Shown in pieces: positions 3,901 to 36,312 of a stretch of 64,000 nt of DNA. Below the pieces are notes generated by a model that was given only the letters and a program-made list of their open reading frames with translations, searched no databases and was not told the origin of the DNA. Position 1 is the first letter of the stretch. Each line of letters starts with the position of its first letter. Source of the stretch: an uncultured Eubacteriales bacterium (lineage in GTDB: Bacteria; Bacillota; Clostridia; Oscillospirales; QAMX01). Location of the stretch: NCBI GenBank assembly GCA_959600635.1, contig CAUGMN010000003.1, positions 6,527-70,526 on the forward strand, in the 5' to 3' direction. Both the position numbers and the translations under genes were made by a program.

Positions 3901-3996
3901 TGCGGGCTTCCGCACAGAACAGCGGCGGCGAAAAGCGCGGCCAAGCAAAGCGCCGCAGCTTTTCGCCGCCGTCCTGACCGCCCTGCAAGGCGGCTG

Positions 3997-5409
3997 TCAG
4001 AGCGTTTCAAGCTTAATGAGGTTGGTATTGCCCGATCTTCCGTTCGGCAAACCGCCGGTGATGACAATGTTGTCGCCCTTCTCGGCCATGCCGGAGTTTT
4101 TGGCGGCGATGATCGCGTGGTAAAAAAGCACGTCGGTGGACTGAAACTCCTCGCTCATCACCGGCTGGACGCCCCATGACAGCGCCAGCTTGCGCCATAC
4201 CTTCTCCTCGGTCGTCATGCCGATGATCGGCTTGGGCGAGCGGAAGCGGGAGACCATGCGCGCCGTCGCGCCGCTGCGCGTGCAGACGACGATGAGACGC
4301 GCGTCGATATCAATCGAGAGCGCGGCCGTCGAATGCGAAACCGCGTCGATGGTGTTGCGGATTTTGAAATTGGAGTTTCGGAACCGCTTGGCATAGTCGA
4401 TATCCTTCTCCGTTTCTTCGGCAATTCGGCTCATCGCCTCGACCGCCGCGACCGGATAACGCCCCATGGCCGTCTCGCCGGAGAGCATAATCGCGCTGGT
4501 TCCGTCGTAGACGGCGTTGGCCACGTCGGAGATCTCGGCGCGCGTCGGGCGCGGCTTCTCGATCATCGATTCGAGCATCTCCGTCGCCGTGATGACGCGC
4601 TTGCCGCGGAAGCGGCAGGCGGTAATCAGATGCTTCTGGATCGCCGGCAGCTCTTCAAAGGGGATCTCCACGCCCATGTCGCCGCGCGCGACCATGATCC
4701 CGTCGCTGTGCTCAATGATCTCCTCGATGTTGTCGACGCCCGAGCGGTTTTCGATCTTGGCGATGAGATCGATGTGTTTGCCGCCGTTAGAGTCCAGGAA
4801 TTCACGGACGTTCACCAGATCCTGCTTGCAGGACACAAACGAGCAGGCGATGAAATCCACGTCCTGCTGAATGCCGAACAGCAGATCGGCCTTGTCCTGC
4901 TCGCTCAGGTAATCCTGTTTGAGCACCTTGTTTGGAAAGCTCATGCTCTTGCGGTCGGACAGCTCGCCGCCGATCAGCACGCGGCAGACCACGTCCGCTC
5001 CCGCCAGCTCCGTGACCTCGAAGATCACAAGGCCGTTATTGAGCAGAATCCTGTCGCCCGGCCGCAGCTCTTCGGCCAAATGCTTATACGACACCGACAC
5101 GCGCCGCTCGTCGCCCTCGATCTCGTCGGCGGTAAAGGCAAACGTGTCGCCGTCGTTGAGCGTCACCTTATGCTCCCGAAACGTCTTGATCCGGTACTCC
5201 GGCCCTTTTGTATCCAGCATCAGCGCGATCGGCGCGTTCAGCTTTTCCCGCACCTTCCGCACCAGCGCCATGCGCCCGGCGTGCTCCTCGTGCGTCCCGT
5301 GAGAAAAATTGAACCGCGCCACGTTCATCCCCGCGCGCACCATTTTCGTCAGCGTCTCCTCATCAGAGCAGGCGGGACCCATCGTACAGATGATTTTGGT
5401 TTTTTTCAT
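3997..5409 (-). CDS. pyk: pyruvate kinase
   Basis: MKKTKIICTMGPACSDEETLTKMVRAGMNVARFNFSHG, MVARGDMGVEIP and other canonical PK motifs. The start is trimmed from the ORF-track 5532 to the ATG at 5409, which gives the conserved N-terminus. Confidence 0.95.
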   Translation of the reverse strand: MKKTKIICTMGPACSDEETLTKMVRAGMNVARFNFSHGTHEEHAGRMALVRKVREKLNAPIALMLDTKGPEYRIKTFREHKVTLNDGDTFAFTADEIEGDERRVSVSYKHLAEELRPGDRILLNNGLVIFEVTELAGADVVCRVLIGGELSDRKSMSFPNKVLKQDYLSEQDKADLLFGIQQDVDFIACSFVSCKQDLVNVREFLDSNGGKHIDLIAKIENRSGVDNIEEIIEHSDGIMVARGDMGVEIPFEELPAIQKHLITACRFRGKRVITATEMLESMIEKPRPTRAEISDVANAVYDGTSAIMLSGETAMGRYPVAAVEAMSRIAEETEKDIDYAKRFRNSNFKIRNTIDAVSHSTAALSIDIDARLIVVCTRSGATARMVSRFRSPKPIIGMTTEEKVWRKLALSWGVQPVMSEEFQSTDVLFYHAIIAAKNSGMAEKGDNIVITGGLPNGRSGNTNLIKLETL

Positions 5410-5647: not shown

Positions 5648-8600
5648 TTATTTCAGAATTTTTTCCGCATAGCGGCGGATCAGCGCCGCCGCTTCGGAGC
5701 GCATCGCTTCGCCTTTCGGTTCCAGCGCCATGCTGCCGCGGCCCTCGATTAAGCCCGAGGCGACCGCCCACTCCATCGCGTCTTCGGCGTAGGGGGCGAT
5801 TTCATCCGCATCCTTGTATGCCGCGAGATCGGTCCGGGCCGATGTATCGCACTGCCTCAGCGCGGCGTAGCGGCAGAAAATCAGCACCATCTGCTCGCGC
5901 GTGATCAGATCATCCGGCCCGAAACGGCCGCTGCCGTCGCCGTAACCGAGGACGATGCCCTCGGCGGCCGCCCAATCGACCGCGTCTGTATACCACGCGC
6001 CGGACGCGAGATCGGTAAAGCACGCCTTGGGGGAGCCCGCCGGGTTTCCTTCCATATTCCAGAGCATCTGAACGATCATCGCGCGCGTCAGCAGCAGGTC
6101 GGGCTCGAACCGGTCTCCGCCCGTGCCCTCCATCACGCCGCTGCGGAAGACGTACATCACGTCGTCATAGAACCAGTCGTCCTTGTCCACGTCGCTGAAC
6201 GGATTGGTCGCAAACGCCGCGTCTATCGCAACCGCCCCGGCAGGCATGACAAACCGATATTTGCCGTCGGCTTCGGTCGCTTCGATCGCCTTGCCGTCGG
6301 CTCCGGTCACGGTGATTTCGCTCAGCCAGTAGTTCTCCAAGGGTATGGCGGTGATCTCCACCAGCGTCCCCGCCGCGGCCCTGTTGACCGAAACGGTCAC
6401 GGAACCGTTTTGCATCTCTTGAATGGATATGGGGTAAGTGACGACGATTCCGCCCGGTGTATTGGCGCTCCATTGGGCGGTCAGGACGGCGTCGGCATCC
6501 CCTACGGTATAAGCCGCTCCGCCGCTGTAAATCTGGCCGTCGCCGTCTTGCCAGCCTTTAAAGGAGTATCCGGCACGGCTGGGGACAGGCAGGTCAAAGC
6601 TGTCGCCTGCGGCCCGCTGTTCATATACGATATCGGCGGAATATCCCGTTTTCAACGTGACCGTAAGCGTACCGGTTCCCACCGGCACCTTCAAATCGCG
6701 CACGACGCCGCCGGCTCCGGCCGCCGCAACGGCCTCTTGCAGGGTGTCATAGAAAGCCATGTTCCACTGGTCGATTACGACGGCGGCCGCCGGGGCCAAA
6801 TCATCCTCGTCGATGTCCGCCTGGCTTCTGGCGGGGAAGATCATGTCGGTTGCGTTGACCGTATCTCCCAACGGGCCGAGCGCAATGCTGGCGTAATTGG
6901 GGTCGCTCAGGTAATTGCCGGTGAAATCCAGCTCCTCATCGTCTTTTTCAAGGTAATAGATCCCCATGGCGGCGTTATTCAGATTGTCGGTGTCCATCAC
7001 GTTGTCTGTGACCGTCACGGAGACGTTTTCGCTGTAATACGCTCCGCCGTTGTTTTTCGGCGCCTCTATGTGGATAAAGCGCTGCTGCCGAACGGCGGGG
7101 TCGGAATCCCGGAAGCTGTTGCCGCGAATGACAATCCGGCTGCCTGCCTCCGGCGTGATCTGAATGGCGTCCCAGTCCACGTTGTCAAAGGTACAGCCGG
7201 TGACGCTGATCTCGCCGGTCAGGCGGGAGGCATAGATCGCGGAGAGCTTGTTCTGGATGTTGTTGATATCTTGAAAGACGACGTTCTGAACCGTCCCGCC
7301 GCTTTTGTCGAAATGGACGGTGATGTTGCCGCTGAGAATGTGGTTTTCACCCGTCTCCGGGTCTTTGCCGTCCAGAACCGCGCCCGCGGGCAGCTTCACA
7401 TCCAATACATTCGAGCGGTCTGCGTTGTGAACGTCGGCCAGCAGAAGAATGGTTTCTCCCGGCTGCACGGCGTTGACGGCGGCGAGCAGCGTTTTGTATT
7501 CCTGATCGTTGATCTTTGCGACAGCGGGCGCGCTCTCAGCGACAACGCCGTAGCTGCCGCTGCCGTTATCGACCGGTTCAAAACCCTCGGCGCAGAGCGA
7601 TTCCTCCACCGCGGCGGCAAAAATACCGCCGGAGACCTTCACCGGCGTGCCGGTCGCGGCAGACAGCTTATCCTTGAAATTGCCGCCTGAAATTTCGACC
7701 GGGCCGCTGAGATCCGCGGAAATATCCGTCTTCCCGCCGCTGGTCACCTTGTTTTCAAACGTGCCGCCTTCGATCTGAATCGTACCCGTACCGCCGTTTC
7801 CAAAAAACGCGTTGTTGTTCGGCACATTCCGCGTAAAGACGCCGCCGCGAATGACGACAGAGCCTTCTCCCGAGGTATAAACCATGCGATAGGAGGTGCC
7901 TGCGCCGCCGTTCCCCAGTGTGTATGTGCCGCCGTTGACGGTCAGAACGCCGCCGTCGGAAGCGATCGCGCCGTTCATCCTGCCGTATACGGTGGCGTTG
8001 TTGATCGTCATAACGGCTTCGCCCGAACCGCCGCCGTTGGCGATGGCGTAAGCATAGCCGCCATTCACATAGTTATCGCAGGCCGTAAAGAAGCCTCCGT
8101 TGATGGTCGCCGTGCCGAAGTTGCGCAGGGCGTTGCCGCGCTGCACCAAGTTAGCGTCCGTGCGGTCGGTATTTTCATCGCCGAAGGTTCCGCCGTTAAT
8201 GGTCAGGACGCCGTAGTTTTCAACGGCATGACGGCCCTGATCCTCGACATTGGTGGTATAAATGGCGCCGGTTTTCGCCGCGCTGCTGTCGTTGATCGTC
8301 AGATCGCCCTGGTTTTTGATAAAGGCGTCTTGATTGACGCCGATCAGCCGGCAGCCGTTCAGATCCAGCGTGACCGTCATGCCCTCGGGAATTCCAATGT
8401 ACTGGCCCTCGGTGCCCGTAACATCCGCCAAAAGGACGAGCTCCACCGTCCGGCCGGCCTCAGCCTCCCGAACCGCGGCTTCCAGCGCGCCTGTCAGCGA
8501 CGCATAGCGCGTTCCGTTCACTTCGGCCAGGAACAGATCGACAATGGCGTCAAAGATCTCTTCCTCACTTTTCGCCTCTCCGCCTACCGTCCATGTGTTG

Positions 8601-30900: not shown

Positions 30901-31694
30901 CGACCGCGGTCATCCCCGTCTTCCCGGGCACCAACTGTGAATTTGACACCGCGCGCGCCGTCGAGCGCGCCGGCGGCATCGCCGAGACGGTCCTCGTCCG
31001 CAACCTGAACCCCGCGCTGCTCCACGAATCGGCCGAGGCGCTTCTCAGCGCCGTCAAGCGCGCCCAGATGCTGATCTTCCCCGGCGGCTTCTCCGGCGGC
31101 GACGAGCCGGAGGGCAGCGGCAAGTTCATCGCCTCGTTTTTCAGAAATCCCGCCCTGCGCGAGGCGACAAACGACCTGATATTAAACCGCGGCGGGCTGA
31201 TTTTAGGCATCTGCAACGGCTTCCAGGCGCTGATCAAGCTCGGCCTCGTGCCGTTCGGCGAGATCCGCGATTTGGACGGCACCTGCCCGACGCTGACCTA
31301 CAACGCCATCGGCGCGCACCGCTCGCGCTATGTGCGCACGCGCGTGGCCTCGGTCAAGTCGCCGTGGCTGGCCAAGTGCTCGCTCGGCGAGGAACACGTC
31401 ATCCCCATTTCGCACGGCGAGGGCCGCTTCGCCGCCGATGATGAGACGCTGGAGCGCCTCATCGCAAACGGCCAGGTCGCCTTCCAGTACGTTGACGCGG
31501 CCGGAAATCCGTCGATGGAGACCGGCGCGAACCCGCCGGGCAGCCTCTTTGCCATCGAGGGCATCACCAGCCCCGACGGCCGCGTGCTCGGCAAGATGGG
31601 ACACACCGAGCGCCGTGGCGCGCTCGTCGGCCGCAACATCCCGGGCAACAAGTTCCAGCCCCTCTTTGAGGCGGGCGTGGAGTATTTCAGGTAA
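27963..31694 (+). CDS. purL: phosphoribosylformylglycinamidine synthase, single-chain (large PurL)
   Basis: 1243 aa. FGAM synthase motifs (HNHPTEIEPFGGAATCLGGAIRD, DFGAGGVSVAIGE) and a C-terminal glutamine amidotransferase domain (LILGICNGFQALIKLG, HGEGRF). Confidence 0.95.
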   Translation: MAVYRCYVTKKTGFDSERTALFRDLSELLALKSLQSVDIVNRYDVEGVTPESFESACQSVFAEPQCDDCFPETLPAELLRQPCRVLAVESLPGQYDQRADSCAACIQLLSGGERPRAAYARIYILRGELSDADFDQCKNWLINPVECREASMEKPETLAAAYGAPAPVETLAGFTQLHETELAACVAEYGLAMDAADLAFLQAYFRDAERRDPTITELRVLDTYWSDHCRHTTFLTRLSVDGIEDEVVAEAFDQYLALRREVFGDKAEHRPVTLMDIATIGAKALKKRGVLKNLDESDEINACTVKVKAVVDGEEQDWLLLFKNETHNHPTEIEPFGGAATCLGGAIRDPLSGRAYVYQAMRVTGSGDPRTPLAETLPGKLPQRRLTKTAARGYSSYGNQIGLATGFVDEIYHPGYVAKRLEIGAVVGAAPAENVRREEPAAGDVVVVLGGRTGRDGCGGATGSSKSHSAASLSVCGAEVQKGNPPEERKLQRLFRSPDVSKRIKRCNDFGAGGVSVAIGELADGLKINLNALPKKYEGLSGTELAISESQERMAVVVAPEDVEAILRAAAAENVEASLVAVVTAEPRLVMELNGEKIVNLSREFVNSNGAPKNAAFAVPDLPEPAAEFPHVCGGPARRLEALLADLNICSKRGLVEMFDSSIGASSVLAPFGGKNQLTPAQVMAALLPVQNGETTTCSVMSYGFNPNISEQNPFAGAVLAVTESLAKLAAAGCDIGSAYMTFQEYFERLRDEPARWGKPVSALLGALSAQLGYGVASIGGKDSMSGSFEDLDVPPTLVSFAVATADASALVTPEFKAAGSTVCLFAAPVDANGLPVYASVRSMWARFHEYVRAGRIKAAFALTAGGLGEAVAKMGFGNDIGFALDESIDIFEICRLNYGAILAETDGALEGAVVVGKTTAEPVISMPRCPDVSLETLKTRWESTLSGVFPVSEPVGGTAEPVGYAERNTARPLVKCARPTAVIPVFPGTNCEFDTARAVERAGGIAETVLVRNLNPALLHESAEALLSAVKRAQMLIFPGGFSGGDEPEGSGKFIASFFRNPALREATNDLILNRGGLILGICNGFQALIKLGLVPFGEIRDLDGTCPTLTYNAIGAHRSRYVRTRVASVKSPWLAKCSLGEEHVIPISHGEGRFAADDETLERLIANGQVAFQYVDAAGNPSMETGANPPGSLFAIEGITSPDGRVLGKMGHTERRGALVGRNIPGNKFQPLFEAGVEYFR

Positions 31695-31703
31695 CGCTTT
31701 CCG

Positions 31704-31745
31704 AAAAACAGAGCCGCTGATAGAATCAGCGGCTCTGTTTTGTTT
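31704..31745 (+). terminator. rho-independent terminator of purL
   Basis: ACAGAGCCGCTGAT / ATCAGCGGCTCTGT stem followed by TTTTGTTT. Confidence 0.85.
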
Positions 31746-31790
31746 GCGGCGGCAAAACGGGCCGGCAAAGGCGCGGAAGCGTTTGACAAC

Positions 31791-31839
31791 AAAAAAACAA
31801 ACCGCTGCGCTCTCCGTATCGATGCGGAGAGCGCAGCGG
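31791..31839 (-). terminator. rho-independent terminator closing the XRE array (minus strand)
   Basis: CCGCTGCGCTCTCCG / CGGAGAGCGCAGCGG stem followed by TTTGTTTTTTT on the minus strand. Confidence 0.75.
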
Positions 31840-31965
31840 TTCAGCGCCAGCTGGTTCGCTTTAAGGGTGATTTCGGACGCGCCTGCGCGAGCTCGCTTCC
31901 ATTCATCTCATCCGCCAGAGCGAAAACGCTCCGCAGACCGTTCTTTCAGAAAACCGTTGCCCCGC

Positions 31966-32334
31966 TCATGCTTTCCCGGCTAAGCCTCGCAGCATATCGA
32001 GTACGACTGCTCTCTGTTCCGGCGACAGCTCTGCAATCAGGGCGTAAATCTCCGCGGCCTCGCCGTCTCCGGACGGTTCCCCTTTTCCGGCCTCCGGCGG
32101 TCTTTGCGCTTGGTCTGTCTGGCCGGTCAGGTATTCAACCGTCGTGTTGAGCTTGTCGGCAATGATAGAGAGTTCGTTGGCGTCGATGTGATCTTTGCCC
32201 AGCCTGACATCCGCTAAAAAAGTAGCTCGTTTGCCAATCAGAGAACATAAATATGTCATCGTCAACCCTTGCGTCTTAGCCAATGTCTTTATTCTATTCA
32301 CGTCTATATTGTGCACTGTGCCCAAAATAATCAC
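31966..32334 (-). CDS. XRE-family HTH protein, paralog A (weak RBS, GTG start; possibly decaying)
   Basis: The HTH_3-like N-terminus (IKTLAKTQGLTMTYLCSLIGKRATFLADVRLG) diverges from copies B and C; the C-terminal ~75 aa are nearly identical to them. The RBS is degenerated relative to copy C. Confidence 0.65.
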   Translation of the reverse strand: MIILGTVHNIDVNRIKTLAKTQGLTMTYLCSLIGKRATFLADVRLGKDHIDANELSIIADKLNTTVEYLTGQTDQAQRPPEAGKGEPSGDGEAAEIYALIAELSPEQRAVVLDMLRGLAGKA

Positions 32335-32360
32335 GTCCGATTTGTATATAATACCAAATC

Positions 32361-32402
32361 CGATAAAATTATCGAATTGCTATTGACATTCGATAATTTT
32401 AT
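32361..32402 (+). promoter_or_regulatory. operator/promoter A: inverted repeat around a TTGACA box; -10 and downstream gene deleted
   Basis: CGATAAAATTATCGAA - 12 nt including TTGACA - TTCGATAATTTTAT (14/14 complementary). Confidence 0.6.
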
Positions 32403-32435
32403 TAGAAAACGGCCATAGCCGAAGCCGCACCCCGC

Positions 32436-32804
32436 TCATGCTTTTCCGGCTAAGCCCCGCAGCATGTCGAGCACGACCGCTCTCTGCTCCGGCGACAGCT
32501 CTGCAATCAGGGCGCAGATCTCCGCGGCCTCGCCGTCTTCGGCCGGTTCCCCTTTTCCGGCCTCCGGCGGTCTTTGCGCTTGATCTGTCTGGTCGGTCAG
32601 GTATTCAACCGTCGTGTTAAGCTTGTCGGCAATGATAGAGAGCTCGTTGGCGTCGATGTGATCTTTGCCAAATCGCACTTCGTTTAAAAAGCCACTTCTT
32701 TTCCCAATACAATCACACAAAAATTTCAATGTAATTCCTTGACTTTTCGCCAACATCCTTATCTTGTCAATATTGACATTAGTAATATTGCACAATTCAA
32801 CCAC
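32436..32804 (-). CDS. XRE-family HTH protein, paralog B
   Basis: IRMLAKSQGITLKFLCDCIGKRSGFLNEVRFG plus the conserved C-terminus. AAGGAG RBS; the true start is probably the TTG a few codons inside the ORF-track GTG. Confidence 0.75.
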   Translation of the reverse strand: MVELCNITNVNIDKIRMLAKSQGITLKFLCDCIGKRSGFLNEVRFGKDHIDANELSIIADKLNTTVEYLTDQTDQAQRPPEAGKGEPAEDGEAAEICALIAELSPEQRAVVLDMLRGLAGKA

Positions 32805-32828
32805 TCCTTATTTGTGCAAAACGTATAA

Positions 32829-32881
32829 CCACTTAATTCTGTGGAAATTTCATTGACTTCCATAAAATTCAGTGGTATATT
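32829..32881 (+). promoter_or_regulatory. operator/promoter B: inverted repeat embracing TTGACT - 17 nt - TATATT
   Basis: Arms CCACTTAATTCTGTGG and CCATAAAATTCAGTGG (13/16 complementary). The second arm fills the promoter spacer. Confidence 0.6.
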
Positions 32882-33161
32882 ATTGTCGCGTCGAGAGACA
32901 AACGCAGCAGTTTCGGCACGGATGCCGCGTGCGGCGCGCCTATGCAGGCGCGGAAAACGCCTTCCAAATAAAACGGTTCGTTGAAAGCGGCTCGCTTCGC
33001 TCAGCCGCGCCCGTTTCGGCCGCATTTCAAAATTAAGCGGTCCGCAGCGGCAGTTCCGTCCGGCCGCGCCGGAAAAATGCGCAAAACTGCCCATATTATA
33101 GTCAGTATACCTGATCGCCTAATCCCTGTCAAGCGTCAAGCGCTTTCCCCCTCCTTTTGAA

Positions 33162-33335
33162 GAGGAGCGTTTTAAGGACAAGCTCCCCGAAGAGCTGCGC
33201 AAAGAGCTGGCCGAGCTCGAAGACTGCTGCGGCGCCGTACACAGCGCGGATCTCGCGCCGGCCTTTTCCGACGGCTTCCGGTTCGGCGCGAGACTCGCCA
33301 CCGAGATTTTTGGCGGCGAGAGCCTCATGGATTAG
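33162..33335 (+). pseudogene. 5'-truncated copy of the small helical protein gene (lacks start and first ~35 codons)
   Basis: In frame it reads EERFKDKLPEELRKELAELEDCCGAVHSADLAPAFSDGFRFGARLATEIFGGESLMD*, nearly identical to 34121..34294. The upstream ~130 bp with the RBS and ATG is deleted. Confidence 0.8.
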
Positions 33336-33363
33336 AAAACGTCCCCCGCCATTTGCACCCCGC

Positions 33364-33756
33364 TCATGCTTTCCCGGCTAAGCCCCGCAGCATATCGAGC
33401 ACGACCGCTCTCTGTTCCGGCGACAGCTCTGCAATCAGGGCGTAAATCTCCGCGGTCTCGCCGTCTCCGGCCGGTTCCCCTTTTCCGGCCTCCGGCGGTC
33501 TTTGCGCTTGGTCTGTCTGGCCGGTCAGGTATTCAACCGTCGTGTTAAGCTTGTCGGCAATGATAGAGAGTTCATTGGTGTCGATGTGATCATAGCCAAG
33601 CCTGACCTGTGATAAAAAGGCACTCCGCTTTCCAATACAATCGCATAAATATTTCATCGTTATTCCACGCAATTTGGCAACTTCTTTTATTCTATCTACG
33701 TTTACATTTTTTACATTGTAAAACTTGCCCAAAAATGACACCTCCTTTTTGTGCAA
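33364..33756 (-). CDS. XRE-family HTH protein, paralog C
   Basis: IKEVAKLRGITMKYLCDCIGKRSAFLSQVRLG plus the conserved C-terminus. Strong AAGGAGGTG RBS; the likely start is the TTG 8 nt downstream of it (protein begins GKFYNVKNVNV). Confidence 0.8.
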   Translation of the reverse strand: MHKKEVSFLGKFYNVKNVNVDRIKEVAKLRGITMKYLCDCIGKRSAFLSQVRLGYDHIDTNELSIIADKLNTTVEYLTGQTDQAQRPPEAGKGEPAGDGETAEIYALIAELSPEQRAVVLDMLRGLAGKA

Positions 33757-33766
33757 AATAGAGATT

Positions 33767-33819
33767 CGGTAAAATTCTTCCGAAAGCCCATTGACTTCGA
33801 AAGAATTTTACCGTATACT
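33767..33819 (+). promoter_or_regulatory. operator/promoter C: inverted repeat embracing TTGACT - 17 nt - TATACT
   Basis: Arms CGGTAAAATTCTTCCG and CGAAAGAATTTTACCG (15/16 complementary). The second arm fills the spacer. Confidence 0.65.
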
Positions 33820-34015
33820 ATTGTCGTGCCGAGAGACAAACGCCGTGGTTTCGGCAGCGTTTCAAAATCAAGCGGTCCGCGGCGGCAGTTCCGTCCGGCC
33901 GCGCCGAAAAATGCGCAAAACTGCCCATATTATATTTAGTATACCTGATTGTCTAACCTCTGTCAAGCATTCGGCGCTTTTCCCCTCATTTTGATTAAAA
34001 AAGGATGGGTCTGTT

Positions 34016-34294
34016 ATGACAACACTCGAAGAGCTCTACTACGGAAATATCGTCCCCCACGATATGCGGCACCGCCCGACGCCCCAGCAGAGACGCCGGG
34101 AAAAGGAGCTGTTCGCGGCGGAGGAGCGTTTTAAGGACAAGCTCCCCGAAGAGCTGCACAAAGAGCTGGCCGAGCTCGAAGACTGCTGCGGCGCCGTACA
34201 CAGCGCGGATCTCGCGCTGGCCTTTTCCGACGGCTTCCGGCTCGGCGCGAGACTCGCCGCCGAGATTTTTGGCGGCGAGAGCCTCGCGGATTAG
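34016..34294 (+). CDS. small helical protein of unknown function (LYYGNI-P family seen beside XRE regulators in Clostridia)
   Basis: 92 aa: MTTLEELYYGNIVPHDMRH...EERFKDKLPEELHKELAELEDCC...FSDGFRLGARLAAEIF. It is the only intact copy of three and is followed by a terminator. Confidence 0.7.
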   Translation: MTTLEELYYGNIVPHDMRHRPTPQQRRREKELFAAEERFKDKLPEELHKELAELEDCCGAVHSADLALAFSDGFRLGARLAAEIFGGESLAD

Positions 34295-34307
34295 ATTACA
34301 GCCACAG

Positions 34308-34353
34308 CCGAAGCCGCGCCCCGTCAAAAGCGCGGGGCGCGGCTTCGGTTTTA
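34308..34353 (+). terminator. rho-independent terminator of the small helical protein gene
   Basis: CCGAAGCCGCGCCCCG / CGGGGCGCGGCTTCGG stem followed by TTTT. Confidence 0.8.
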
Positions 34354-35250
34354 TTTCCGGTTCAGCTTGGGCTTGCGCGTCCGTTTTTGTTCGTAGATCT
34401 CGCCGGTTTCGAGATAGATTGCGCTTTCAAAGTCCGCGCCGCCGCCGATATCGATGATGCGCGCGCCCTTGGCGTAGCCCTCCAAGCCGTAGCACTGGTA
34501 GCCCGACCCTCTGCCGTAGCAGAGCCGGATGCCGTGCAGCGTGCCCTCGTAGTCGTTGATGTGATCGTGTCCGACAAAGACGCCGCGCATCGCCCCGCCC
34601 CGCACCATGGCGGCGAAGAGCCCGTCGTTGCAGTCGGTGGCGCAGACGCGCTCCTGATTAAAGCCCTTGCACGGCTCATAGTCCCAAACTTCGATGTATT
34701 CAGGCACCGGCACGTGGAAAAACGCCAGCTCTCTGTGCCCCTCGCCCAGCGCCGCCGACGTTTCGGCATACCAGAGAATCTGATTGAGCGCGAAGTGTCC
34801 GCGGTGCGAATCGATCATATAGAGCGCCCAGTCGGGCTTTTCGGCCGTGCCTCCGACGGTGACAAGATAGTTTCCCCAGCCGTCCGCCGATTCCGGCCCC
34901 ATCTCAAACAGGCTGTTTTTGCGCCCGAGCAGCATTTCCGCAAACAGGCGCCGCCCGCCCTCGGCGCGGTCGCCGAGGCGCTCTCCGTCGTGATTGCCGA
35001 GCACCGGCGCCCACGGAATCCCGAAGGCGTCCAGTTCGTCGACCAGCCGGTCGACGGCCTCGCGGTCGCCCGTTCCCCATGCGATATCGCCGGTGATCAC
35101 GATCAGATCCGGCGACGTGTCGCGCAGCGTCTGGCGAATGAGCGCGAAGGTCTGCTCATACTCTTCAAAGCGTTCGGTCGAGTCGAGGTGAATATCGGTC
35201 AGCTGGCAGATACGGAACCGGCCTCCGGCCGGAATTGAAAAATGTGTCAT
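34351..35250 (-). CDS. calcineurin-like metallophosphoesterase
   Basis: ICQLTDIHLD, VITGDIAWG, VLGNHD and VGHDHINDY motifs. The start is trimmed to the ATG at 35250, which has a GGGAGGAAA RBS. Confidence 0.88.
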   Translation of the reverse strand: MTHFSIPAGGRFRICQLTDIHLDSTERFEEYEQTFALIRQTLRDTSPDLIVITGDIAWGTGDREAVDRLVDELDAFGIPWAPVLGNHDGERLGDRAEGGRRLFAEMLLGRKNSLFEMGPESADGWGNYLVTVGGTAEKPDWALYMIDSHRGHFALNQILWYAETSAALGEGHRELAFFHVPVPEYIEVWDYEPCKGFNQERVCATDCNDGLFAAMVRGGAMRGVFVGHDHINDYEGTLHGIRLCYGRGSGYQCYGLEGYAKGARIIDIGGGADFESAIYLETGEIYEQKRTRKPKLNRK

Positions 35251-35566
35251 AGCGTTTCCTCCCGATGGATGAAGATGGATGAAATGGATAAAAAAATCCG
35301 CGCGGATTCTATACCGTCTGCTGCGCCTTCGCCCTGCGGCAAACGCAGAACAGACGGCGAACCCGGCCTTGCGGTTCCGCAAATATTATACCATAAACCG
35401 GCGGCGCTGTCCCGCCGGTTTTTGATTTTTTTCGATCGGTTCCGCGTTTTTTTCGTCCGGCCGAACCGCTGCGCGCCGGTCGCAAAGCGCGAAAGGCGCG
35501 CAGCGCCGTTTTTGGGAGGCCCGCTCCGCAATCCCGCCGTTTCTTTTATAAATTCCGGCGTTTGAT

Positions 35567-35682: not shown

Positions 35683-36312
35683 ATGCTCAAAACCGACAAA
35701 ACCTGCGTTATGAATCTGGACAACGCCATCCGCGGGGCGCGAAACCCCATGAACTCATGGGCGAAATCCGACAGCGGCTACGACAGCAGGGGCAACTTCG
35801 TCCTCGGCGATGCGGATCTCGCCCTCGCCGTCAAGCTCTGCACGGCGGGCAGCGACCACCGCAAATTCATCCGGCAAATCTTTGTCTCCGTCGATATCAC
35901 CGCGCCGCTGTACTGGTGGAAAGAGTTCGACACCTATAAGGTCGGCACCGTCGCCAACTCCACGAGCACGATGCACCGTATCCACGCCAAGCCCATCGAG
36001 CTGTCGGATTTCAGCACCGATCAGATGACCGGAGAAAGCCTGACGCGCTTCGAGGGCTATATCGCCTACCTCGAACAGCTTCGCCGCCGCTATACCGAGA
36101 GCGGCGACCGCATCTGGTGGGACGATCTGATTCAGCTGCTGCCGTCGAGCTACAACCAGCTCCGCACGGTGACGATGAACTATGAAAACCTGCGCAATAT
36201 GTACCATTCGAGAAGCCGCCACAAGCTCGCCGAGTGGCATGTGCTCTGTGACTGGATCGCCTCGCTGCCCTATGCGGCCGAGCTGATCATCGGCGCGGCC
36301 CGGCCTCAGTAG
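35683..36312 (+). CDS. ThyX-fold (flavin-dependent thymidylate synthase-like) protein lacking the RHR motif
   Basis: Aligns by eye to ThyX: GSDHRKFIRQIFVSVDITAPLYWWKEF vs [26 protein letters not shown], and LLPSSYNQLRTVTMNYENLRNMYHSRSRHKLAEW vs [33 protein letters not shown]. RHRxxxxxxxS is replaced by DTYKVGTVANS. Confidence 0.6.
   Translation: MLKTDKTCVMNLDNAIRGARNPMNSWAKSDSGYDSRGNFVLGDADLALAVKLCTAGSDHRKFIRQIFVSVDITAPLYWWKEFDTYKVGTVANSTSTMHRIHAKPIELSDFSTDQMTGESLTRFEGYIAYLEQLRRRYTESGDRIWWDDLIQLLPSSYNQLRTVTMNYENLRNMYHSRSRHKLAEWHVLCDWIASLPYAAELIIGAARPQ

Follow-up and report, generated by a model that had tools for sequence, protein, structure and literature searches.

Three tandem XRE repressor genes and a single DUF6809 gene at the purL locus of an uncultured Eubacteriales bacterium: a candidate phage-derived immunity-type switch

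The array and its surroundings

We analyzed a 64-kb stretch of DNA from an uncultured Eubacteriales bacterium (64,000 nucleotides [nt] of contig CAUGMN010000003.1, assembly GCA_959600635.1; referred to here as the window), in which a tandem array of three genes for XRE-type repressors lies between purL and a metallophosphoesterase gene. Reading of positions 31500 to 35000 together with the open reading frame (ORF) listing placed the three genes, all on the minus strand, at 31966-32334 (A), 32436-32804 (B), and 33364-33756 (C), and a three-way alignment of the units gave periods of 470 bp and 928 bp, in agreement with a first-pass annotation made from the sequence. The probable start codons are TTG triplets at 32325, 32795, and 33732, chosen for the Shine-Dalgarno sequence 6 to 8 nt before them and for homologues that begin at the equivalent position. 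The proteins thus have 119 (XRE A, 31966-32325), 119 (XRE B, 32436-32795), and 122 (XRE C, 33364-33732) amino acids, each with a DNA-binding head of its own type (A, B, and C); the B type is the one found in single-copy relatives (the L002 group, see below).

On the plus strand, the sole gene that the outward promoter would drive is located at 34016-34294, in unit C. Its product of 92 amino acids, a predicted helical hairpin, belongs to family DUF6809 (PF20648; 72.5 bits against a cutoff of 27, E value of 5e-20), with a match covering residues 1 to 84 of the protein and positions 1 to 85 of the 85 in the model. Unit B holds a 5'-truncated DUF6809 pseudogene (33162-33335, plus strand) made up of the last 57 codons and the stop, with neither a ribosome-binding site nor a start codon and 91% identical to the intact copy at the amino acid level (five replacements, including L to P). 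In unit A, the sequence is joined, about 17 nt past the -35 box, to the ATTAG stop region of the former DUF6809 gene, and only this end and the 3' flank, left terminator arm included, persist (32401-32432, plus strand). The alignment bears out the earlier description of the partner gene as intact in C, deleted at the 5' end in B, and gone from A except for ATTAG. The same description spoke of cassettes in three stages of decay, which applies to the DUF6809 copies and not to the XRE genes, whose frames are all intact. A strong terminator hairpin on the minus strand (31798-31843, 19 pairs followed by a T-run) would end transcription through XRE C, B, and A, and another after the intact DUF6809 gene (34306-34350, plus strand) is shared with the convergent metallophosphoesterase gene.

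The flanking genes (purL, metallophosphoesterase, PHP, epimerase, and GalT) are of the housekeeping kind and syntenic in all relatives. No integrase was found at the purL locus, either here or in the syntenic relatives, and no recognizable prophage remnant was seen in these flanks, so that the array is indeed an orphan, as had been claimed. The accompanying statement that no integrase, phage, or conjugation genes lie nearby holds for the integrase but has to be qualified for phage genes, as a 209-amino-acid gene at 35683-36312 (plus strand), the only phage-family gene by the array, matches phrog_6721 (E value of 7e-66). This family has no assigned function; the gene, which shows a weak Pfam match to ThyX (Thy1), is located two genes from the array, and its synteny is kept in all relatives. 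Beyond the array, searches of the 64-kb window gave no further copy of XRE or DUF6809, and a candidate fourth remnant to the left of unit A (31843-31975) was rejected, with a local alignment score of 19 against 16.6 ± 2.5 in shuffled sequences. An Rfam scan of 31000-35500 (E value of ≤1) returned only two sub-threshold matches, both at the purL terminator, and the leaders correspond to no known riboswitch or small RNA.

Repressor modules and their control regions

The repressor genes are mosaics. Codons 1 to 48, which encode helices 1 to 3 of the helix-turn-helix (HTH) domain, are 62 to 68% identical in nucleotide sequence among the three paralogues, and from codon 49 to the stop the identity changes sharply to 93.5 to 96%. 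The heads together with the operator/promoter segments have a GC content of 31 to 36%, against 60 to 70% in the flanks, and appear as three clear dips. Judged by sequence, the DNA-binding domain is a divergent member of the HTH_3 family. The AlphaFold2 model of XRE A has a five-helix HTH domain (residues 9-18, 23-29, 36-41, 49-58, and 63-66; predicted local distance difference test [pLDDT] of 83 to 91), a disordered linker (77-89), and two C-terminal helices (88-98 and 102-117). In Foldseek comparisons, the model matched the N-terminal domains of SinR, lambda cI, 434, P22 c2, and CapH with a probability of 1.0 (root mean square deviation of about 2 to 3 Å over about 60 residues), and the best full-length matches in the PDB were AimC (9iaq, E value of 6e-5) and SinR/SinI (1b0n, 4.5e-3), along with DdrO and the phi106 repressor bound to AimX. 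The capH model of PADLOC also matched the XRE proteins over their full length (E values of 1e-7 to 2.5e-4). A search of PDB sequences with the XRE profile gave no match, NCBIfam gave nothing useful, and the PHROGs matches, obtained for XRE A and C, were generic ("transcriptional regulator").

Each repressor gene is preceded by a compact control region. In unit C (33765-33819, plus strand), it consists of a putative operator, O1(C), at 33765-33784, a predicted outward promoter, P_out (TTGACT-17-TATACT, 33791-33819), and a second operator, O2(C), at 33796-33815. The equivalent elements in unit B (32827-32881, plus strand) are O1(B) at 32827-32846, P_out (TTGACT-17-TATATT) at 32853-32881, and O2(B) at 32858-32877. 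Unit A keeps a remnant (32359-32406) with O1(A) at 32359-32376, a -35 box (TTGACA) at 32383-32388, and O2(A) at 32389-32406; the deletion junction cuts into O2(A), the -10 box is gone, and the inverted repeat comprises 15 nt that are 100% complementary. Units B and C keep a full predicted P_out and unit A, as the first-pass annotation noted, only the -35 box; that annotation did not mention the opposing promoters on the minus strand. These distal promoters, located at 33104-33132 in B and 33938-33966 in C (both TTGACA-17-TATACT), face the respective P_out, match the consensus at 11 of 12 positions, and lie just upstream of the DUF6809 ribosome-binding site. P_out and distal promoters of both units agree with the consensus at 10 to 11 of 12 positions, and a promoter scan yielded 8 promoter-like sites compared to 1.4 ± 1.3 in shuffled sequences. 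The predicted convergent transcripts would have about 105 nt in common in unit C and about 210 nt in unit B. The hexamers of the distal promoter are kept, with varying spacer sequence, in L002 and other relatives, and the P_out/distal promoter pair is present in the single-copy relative L002 and in the phage L030 as well.

An inverted repeat brackets the -35 box of P_out in every unit, with arm centers 30 to 31 bp apart, and within the 64-kb window each operator type is confined to its own unit. The layout of the control region (AGTATA, O2, GTCAA, about 7 nt, O1, TTTGCACAAAAAGGAGGTG, N6, TTG) is conserved, ungapped, in seven head types, including those of the prophages L010, L033, L030/32, and L011. 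In this layout, AGTATA is the reverse complement of the TATACT -10 box, O2 comprises about 18 variable bases, GTCAA is the -35 element, and O1 is the reverse complement of the variable bases. Across the seven types the repeat arms co-vary, with 13 of the 18 pairs changed on both sides and a covariation score of 0.45 (shuffled sequences, 0.20 ± 0.05), in a register that is ambiguous by 1 nt. A scan of IMG/VR for the operator patterns gave 62 single matches for the A type (approximately the chance estimate), 8 for the B type, and 0 for the C type, none of them adjoining an XRE gene of this family.

The leader of DUF6809 differs between units by a 103-bp segment (32919-33021) that is present in B and flanked by GTTTCGGC direct repeats. 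Since the single-copy relatives also carry it, the difference is, by this comparison, a deletion in C between the repeats rather than an insertion in B. The sense-strand leader has no unusual RNA stability (z = -0.64). No plus-strand terminator was found between P_out(B) and 34306; a transcript from P_out(B) (32888-34306) would cover the DUF6809 remnant, cross XRE C in the antisense direction, and continue into the intact DUF6809 gene, and such read-through would couple units B and C. On the minus strand, we found no strong terminator between XRE C and the hairpin at 31843->31798, only a weak one between B and A, and XRE C, B, and A are therefore likely to form one co-directional transcription unit.

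Alleles at the purL site and relatives in phages

To place the array among its relatives, we surveyed the site between purL and the metallophosphoesterase gene by exact-protein look-ups and blastn. The relatives were metagenome-assembled genomes of Eubacteriales, Acutalibacteraceae, and Ruminococcaceae. Six of them (L002, L003, L005-7, and L009) have one B-type unit with an intact DUF6809 gene and a full leader, and L111 has one C-type unit, also with an intact DUF6809 gene. A two-unit allele, B+C, was found in L001 (NCBI GCA_964329885.1), which is 97.7% identical to positions 32430-34400 of the window and has the same truncation. The complete A+B+C array is shared by the window and L015, an independent metagenome contig of 59.8 kb with identical order, spacing, and truncations (98 to 99.6% identity); a second independent contig, L016, has the same C-B-A order and ends inside XRE A. 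The first-pass annotation had envisaged strains with one, two, or three units, and all three copy numbers occur among contigs at this site. At the junctions, there is GCCCCG-type microhomology at the terminator arm.

This series is best explained, on sequence grounds, if pre-existing alleles were stacked by unequal recombination and deletions confined to DUF6809 and P_out followed, because B-type and C-type units occur as single-copy alleles and the heads and operators differ. Every deletion in the array spares the repressor genes. The earlier proposal of a triplication in place with later divergence does not fit the different heads and operators, nor the single-copy occurrence elsewhere of the B type (L002 group) and the C type (L111).

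Codon comparisons indicate that the repressor heads evolved under constraint. The head of XRE A differs from that of its homologue in phage L030 at 30 synonymous and 9 nonsynonymous codons, and XRE B differs from its counterpart in L002 at 0 of 144 nt in the head and by 8 synonymous and 5 nonsynonymous codons in the tail. Between the window and L015, synonymous/nonsynonymous codon differences were 11/3 for XRE A, 3/3 for B, and 4/5 for C, small counts in which some changes are probably gene-conversion patches; they hint weakly that XRE A is still maintained. The XRE frames are intact wherever they are fully covered (A, B, and C in the window and L015; B and C in L001). The 144 nt of the B-type head (32652-32795) are 100% identical in the window and L002, and the same comparison gives about 92% identity over the DUF6809 coding sequence (23 of 279 nt differ; 9 synonymous and 10 nonsynonymous changes), about 88% when leader and 3' flank are added, and about 80% for the purL-side segment (flank plus the 3' half of the adjacent XRE gene). 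The identity of the B head in different lineages suggests that the AT-rich cassette either was exchanged recently or is under extreme constraint.

Outside the purL site, relatives of the repressors are in prophages. A protein search revealed a family with at least seven head types, variable in helices 1 to 3, and three tail types, joined by an invariant core, NELSIIADKLNTTVEYLTGQTD, that is 80 to 92% identical in nucleotide sequence even between phage and window; an XRE-profile search of genome contigs returned 7 distant loci only. Heads and tails are shuffled within the family. A-like heads are found with tail 1 (window A and P0006), tail 2 (P0011), and tail 3 (P0019), the B head is 100% identical at the amino acid level in P0009, where it is followed by the phage-type tail 2, and C-like heads also occur with tail 2 (P0007 and P0008). 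We saw tail 1 nowhere but at the purL locus, together with DUF6809. XRE C is 78% identical in nucleotide sequence to its homologue in prophage L010 over 33595-33764. The recognition helix GKRATFLxDVRLG is common to window A and the phages L030/L032, as are 16 of the 18 bases of the operator and an identical GTCAATAGCAAT, and the other head types have neither this recognition helix nor this operator.

Besides the single prophage L112 (see below), two groups of prophages carry these relatives, which face early-gene operons. The first has a tyrosine integrase and a ParE/DUF6290 toxin-antitoxin pair (L010 and L033). L032 probably belongs with them; this 4.6-kb contig has tail type 2, a DUF6290-like gene, and no integrase. 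The second has a serine recombinase, an adjacent M78 peptidase, and tail type 3 (L011-14 and L030-31). The presence of XRE relatives in prophage lysogeny modules beside integrases, with the same promoter/operator layout, upholds the assignment of the cassette to the immunity-switch type.

L011 (XRE at 8001-8390) and L030 (XRE at 4067-4456) share one backbone (M78 peptidase, Cu_amine_oxidN1, DUF4160, two DUF2442 genes, and serine recombinase) and have different heads and operators, a combination classic for heteroimmune phages, which they appear to be by sequence. Two tandem genes for 109-amino-acid membrane proteins (7010-7339 and 7558-7887) lie just upstream in L011. A second, independent case of tandem heterospecific repressors is L112 (OIXH01002306.1), with XRE paralogues at 3980-4345 and 4494-4847 that have near-identical tails and different heads, in a prophage with an integrase at 6761-7882.

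DUF6809 has a different distribution. The family is large (a profile search found 2318 related clusters), and it is usually found in an HTH_17-DUF6809(-TnpV) unit with translational coupling, located at the edge of integrative elements. Pairs with an HTH_17 protein of 194 to 198 amino acids were found at such edges of integrative or mobilizable elements in L105-L110 (4420-5303), L113 (841-2195), L021, and L022, and coupled pairs adjoin Shedu (SduA_C) and Type ISP restriction-modification genes. Because the usual partner is the coupled HTH_17 protein, the pairing of DUF6809 with XRE appears, from these contexts, to be specific to the purL locus. A DUF6809 homologue with 38% identity was also detected near the end of a 48-kb contig of an uncultured phage from human feces (L117, MT835506.1, positions 3995-4276); it overlaps the stop of a 91-amino-acid ORF and lies upstream of a 171-amino-acid HTH-like gene, and no XRE of the window family was found near it. 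The predicted hairpin (pLDDT of 75) is small and acidic, and its model had no meaningful Foldseek match in the PDB. We found no paper naming DUF6809 in the literature searched.

A putative switch, its alternatives, and known systems

Taken together, these data lead us to regard the locus as probably an orphan, phage-derived, immunity-type switch cassette present in one lineage of gut Clostridia with high GC content. When complete, the cassette would comprise a SinR/AimC/CapH-like XRE repressor (five-helix HTH, disordered linker, and two C-terminal helices), a strong P_out just upstream of its start codon, two operators of about 20 bp spaced 30 to 31 bp apart around the -35 box, a leader of about 190 to 300 nt, DUF6809 as the only outward gene, and a strong distal promoter by the DUF6809 start firing back through P_out into the repressor gene. 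As a dimer or tetramer, the repressor would bind its own O1/O2 and occlude P_out. This would silence DUF6809 and at the same time relieve the interference with XRE mRNA caused by convergent transcription and antisense RNA, giving a self-reinforcing "off" state that would flip when the repressor is inactivated, presumably by a signal acting on the common tail. In the strain analyzed here, cassettes A, B, and C would have been stacked, with different helices 1 to 3 and operators and near-identical tails, and deletions would then have cost A its DUF6809 gene and part of P_out, and B the 5' end of its DUF6809 gene. This would leave a C-B-A repressor unit with three DNA specificities and one DUF6809. 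The sequence data show the anatomy and mosaic structure, the homology and phage contexts, the alleles of different copy number, the conserved layout, the co-variation of head and operator, and the fold class, and from them we infer DNA binding, promoter activity, the switch logic, and any role of DUF6809. Of the original description as an orphan, amplifying, and decaying immunity-type switch, the orphan and immunity-type parts are retained; amplification is replaced by the stacking of alleles, and the XRE genes have not decayed.

Several observations weigh against this interpretation. The three proteins score only 20.2, 14.1, and 18.6 bits with PF01381 (HTH_3), below the Pfam gathering cutoff of 23. 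Promoters and operators are predictions at the level of consensus matches, single operator arms are significant dyads in only 4 of the 7 types (O1, 20 bp, p of about 0.01 to 0.02), and the O2/O1 repeat could act at the RNA level. In the serine-recombinase phages there is a second CI/Cro-like pair, and the XRE protein need not be their master immunity repressor. The phage relatives of XRE are not paired with DUF6809, which elsewhere is coupled to HTH_17 on integrative elements. Finally, unit A has a weakened Shine-Dalgarno sequence (GGACGTG) and no distal promoter of its own, and it may be on its way out.

One rival explanation is that C is functional and that A and B are dying duplicates with no role, persisting only because they are young. 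We consider it a possible explanation, although a rather unlikely one. The loss or truncation of the partner genes in A and B would fit, as would the condition of unit A (no -10 box, no distal promoter, and a poor Shine-Dalgarno sequence), the variation in copy number among close relatives (L001 lacks A), and the L to P and other changes in the DUF6809 remnant of B. Nevertheless, all three XRE frames are open in the assemblies that cover them completely, the deletions avoid the repressors without exception, and the B type is the sole copy in another lineage, with its head identical at all 144 nt. The excess of synonymous changes in XRE A relative to L015 points the same way, if weakly, as part of it may stem from gene-conversion tracts, and A lies downstream of B past a weak terminator only, so it could still be co-transcribed.

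It seems distinctly improbable that the locus is a toxic or abortive-infection module guarded by a repressor, like RacR/YdaS-YdaT or DicA/DicB, in which DUF6809 would arrest growth and the spare XRE proteins would serve as back-up. The arrangement of repressor and target does resemble that of cryptic-prophage modules (PMC11879457; bioRxiv 10.64898/2026.09.06.749655), a single DUF6809 copy is tolerated while repressor copies build up, and elsewhere DUF6809 neighbors the Shedu and Type ISP defense cargo mentioned above. However, the protein, a small and acidic predicted helical hairpin, matched no PADLOC model or PDB fold, it is usually coupled in translation to HTH_17 rather than guarded by a repressor, and the locus shows no sign of toxicity. 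We also give little weight to the idea that the inverted repeats are hairpin elements, stabilizers or attenuators in the 5' untranslated region (5'UTR) of the XRE mRNA, instead of operators, and that head variation is unrelated to them. The predicted 5'UTR of XRE C (33733-33931, minus strand) is indeed very stable (-70.9 kcal/mol, z = -4.2), mainly through the O2/O1 stem, in which the operator arms pair as a long hairpin before the Shine-Dalgarno sequence; this stem is kept across types through compensatory changes, and internal dyads are weak in 3 of the 7 types. Yet in every case the repeat lies around the -35 box of a conserved outward promoter and overlaps its -10 box, the 20-bp dyads in the remaining O1 arms would be needless for an RNA stem, and the repeat tracks the recognition helix, both being shared by window A and L030/32 and neither by the other types; RNA and operator roles are, in any case, compatible. 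Lastly, an assembly artifact, a concern raised by the first-pass annotation, in the form of an expanded or collapsed repeat or else a chimera of strain variants, which a probably metagenome-type assembly with stretches of about 220 bp that are 93 to 96% identical might invite, is very unlikely and close to negligible, because the units are told apart by their own unique AT-rich segments and L015 repeats the array, with unit-specific junction sequences and the alleles of L016 and L001 also arguing against it.

If the locus is a phage-derived switch, DUF6809 may be an antirepressor analogous to AimX or SinI, a suggestion that we make with less confidence. On this view, it would make sense that a single DUF6809 serves three repressors whose heads have diverged and whose tails have stayed nearly the same. 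We considered whether DUF6809 is homologous to the XRE tail in the manner of SinI and rejected this (hhalign probability of 0.3%). More tentatively still, the stacked heads might confer immunity to phages with matching operators. In its boldest form, this becomes a host-domesticated, multispecific immunity stack, in which three heads of heteroimmune phage groups silence incoming phages and DUF6809 switches all of them off via the common tail. We regard this as a speculative and improbable reading; were it true, DUF6809 would have its first function, and the stacking of repressors through the capture of alleles would be a new way to become resistant to phages.

The locus combines elements of known kinds, namely, a prophage-type switch left as an orphan, an immunity cassette of mosaic structure, and a repressor resembling SinR and AimC. 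Its unusual feature is that three heterospecific repressors with a common tail stand in tandem with a single DUF6809, in an arrangement that is polymorphic among strains. The repressor family can be described as two exchangeable modules joined at the core NELSIIADKLNTTVEYLTGQTD, an AT-rich head that goes with its operator and would set specificity and a tail that would set the input or partner, the latter found with DUF6809 at purL and with an M78 peptidase or toxin-antitoxin and integrase genes in phages. Three heads on one tail amount to a natural experiment in the diversification and capture of immunity specificity. The array provides a first, testable way to approach DUF6809, whose family has thousands of members but no function assigned to it, as well as three repressor/operator pairs with convergent promoters that form a compact and apparently orthogonal set. 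If phage operators are indeed recognized by the repressors, the array would be a simple form of heritable multiphage immunity in gut Clostridia.

Among described systems, the closest in architecture are AimC/AimX (9iaq and 9sf2) and SinR/SinI (1b0n), in which a five-helix HTH is likewise followed by an unstructured linker and a C-terminal oligomerization domain of two helices, and a small, mainly helical partner is encoded beside the repressor. AimX, a small helical antirepressor, binds to AimC's C-terminal oligomerization domain, and the AimX transcript runs antisense to aimC (bioRxiv 10.1101/2025.11.23.689978). However, XRE and DUF6809 lack sequence homology to any of these proteins, as the PDB sequence search had indicated, there are no AimR/AimP genes here as in arbitrium systems, and here three different heads share a common tail and one candidate partner, whose binding to the tail is putative.

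The arrangement of promoters recalls the coliphages 186 (pR/pL) and P2 (Pe/Pc), whose face-to-face promoter switches have been described (PMC5001618, PMC7708051). Features of both phages that are predicted at our locus are strong convergent promoters with overlapping transcripts, a repressor gene downstream of one promoter that would be read through the other, and operators on the outward ("lytic") promoter, so that repression should also relieve transcriptional interference. The likeness is functional only, since the XRE/SinR-like repressor is not homologous to 186 CI or P2 C, and no structure of either was among the 50 best Foldseek matches listed. In addition, the predicted overlap is about 105 to 210 nt rather than 62 nt or less, and the outward operon consists of DUF6809 alone and a terminator instead of a lytic operon.

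ImmR/ImmA, CapH/CapP, and DdrO/IrrE also involve XRE repressors with a C-terminal dimerization domain, in keeping with the capH and DdrO matches described above. CapH, ImmR, and DdrO are inactivated by an M78 peptidase that cleaves the C-terminal domain (bioRxiv 10.1101/2022.04.27.489752). No M78/COG2856 peptidase was found in the 64-kb window (tblastn with the phage M78 peptidase, best E value of 0.17), and the protease-linked tail in this family is type 3 (L011-14 and L030-31), whereas that of the window is type 1.

In RacR-YdaS/T and DicA-DicB, as here, a repressor and its target promoter have been left in the chromosome without the rest of the phage, and in the mosaic immunity regions of heteroimmune phages head and operator swap as one cassette in the same way (L011 compared to L030). 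A limited literature search found no published description of such a tandem heterospecific repressor array. The purL locus differs from cryptic-prophage modules in having no recognizable prophage remnant around it, and from both these and heteroimmune regions in that three heterospecific repressors stand in tandem at one syntenic site, where their copy number is polymorphic.

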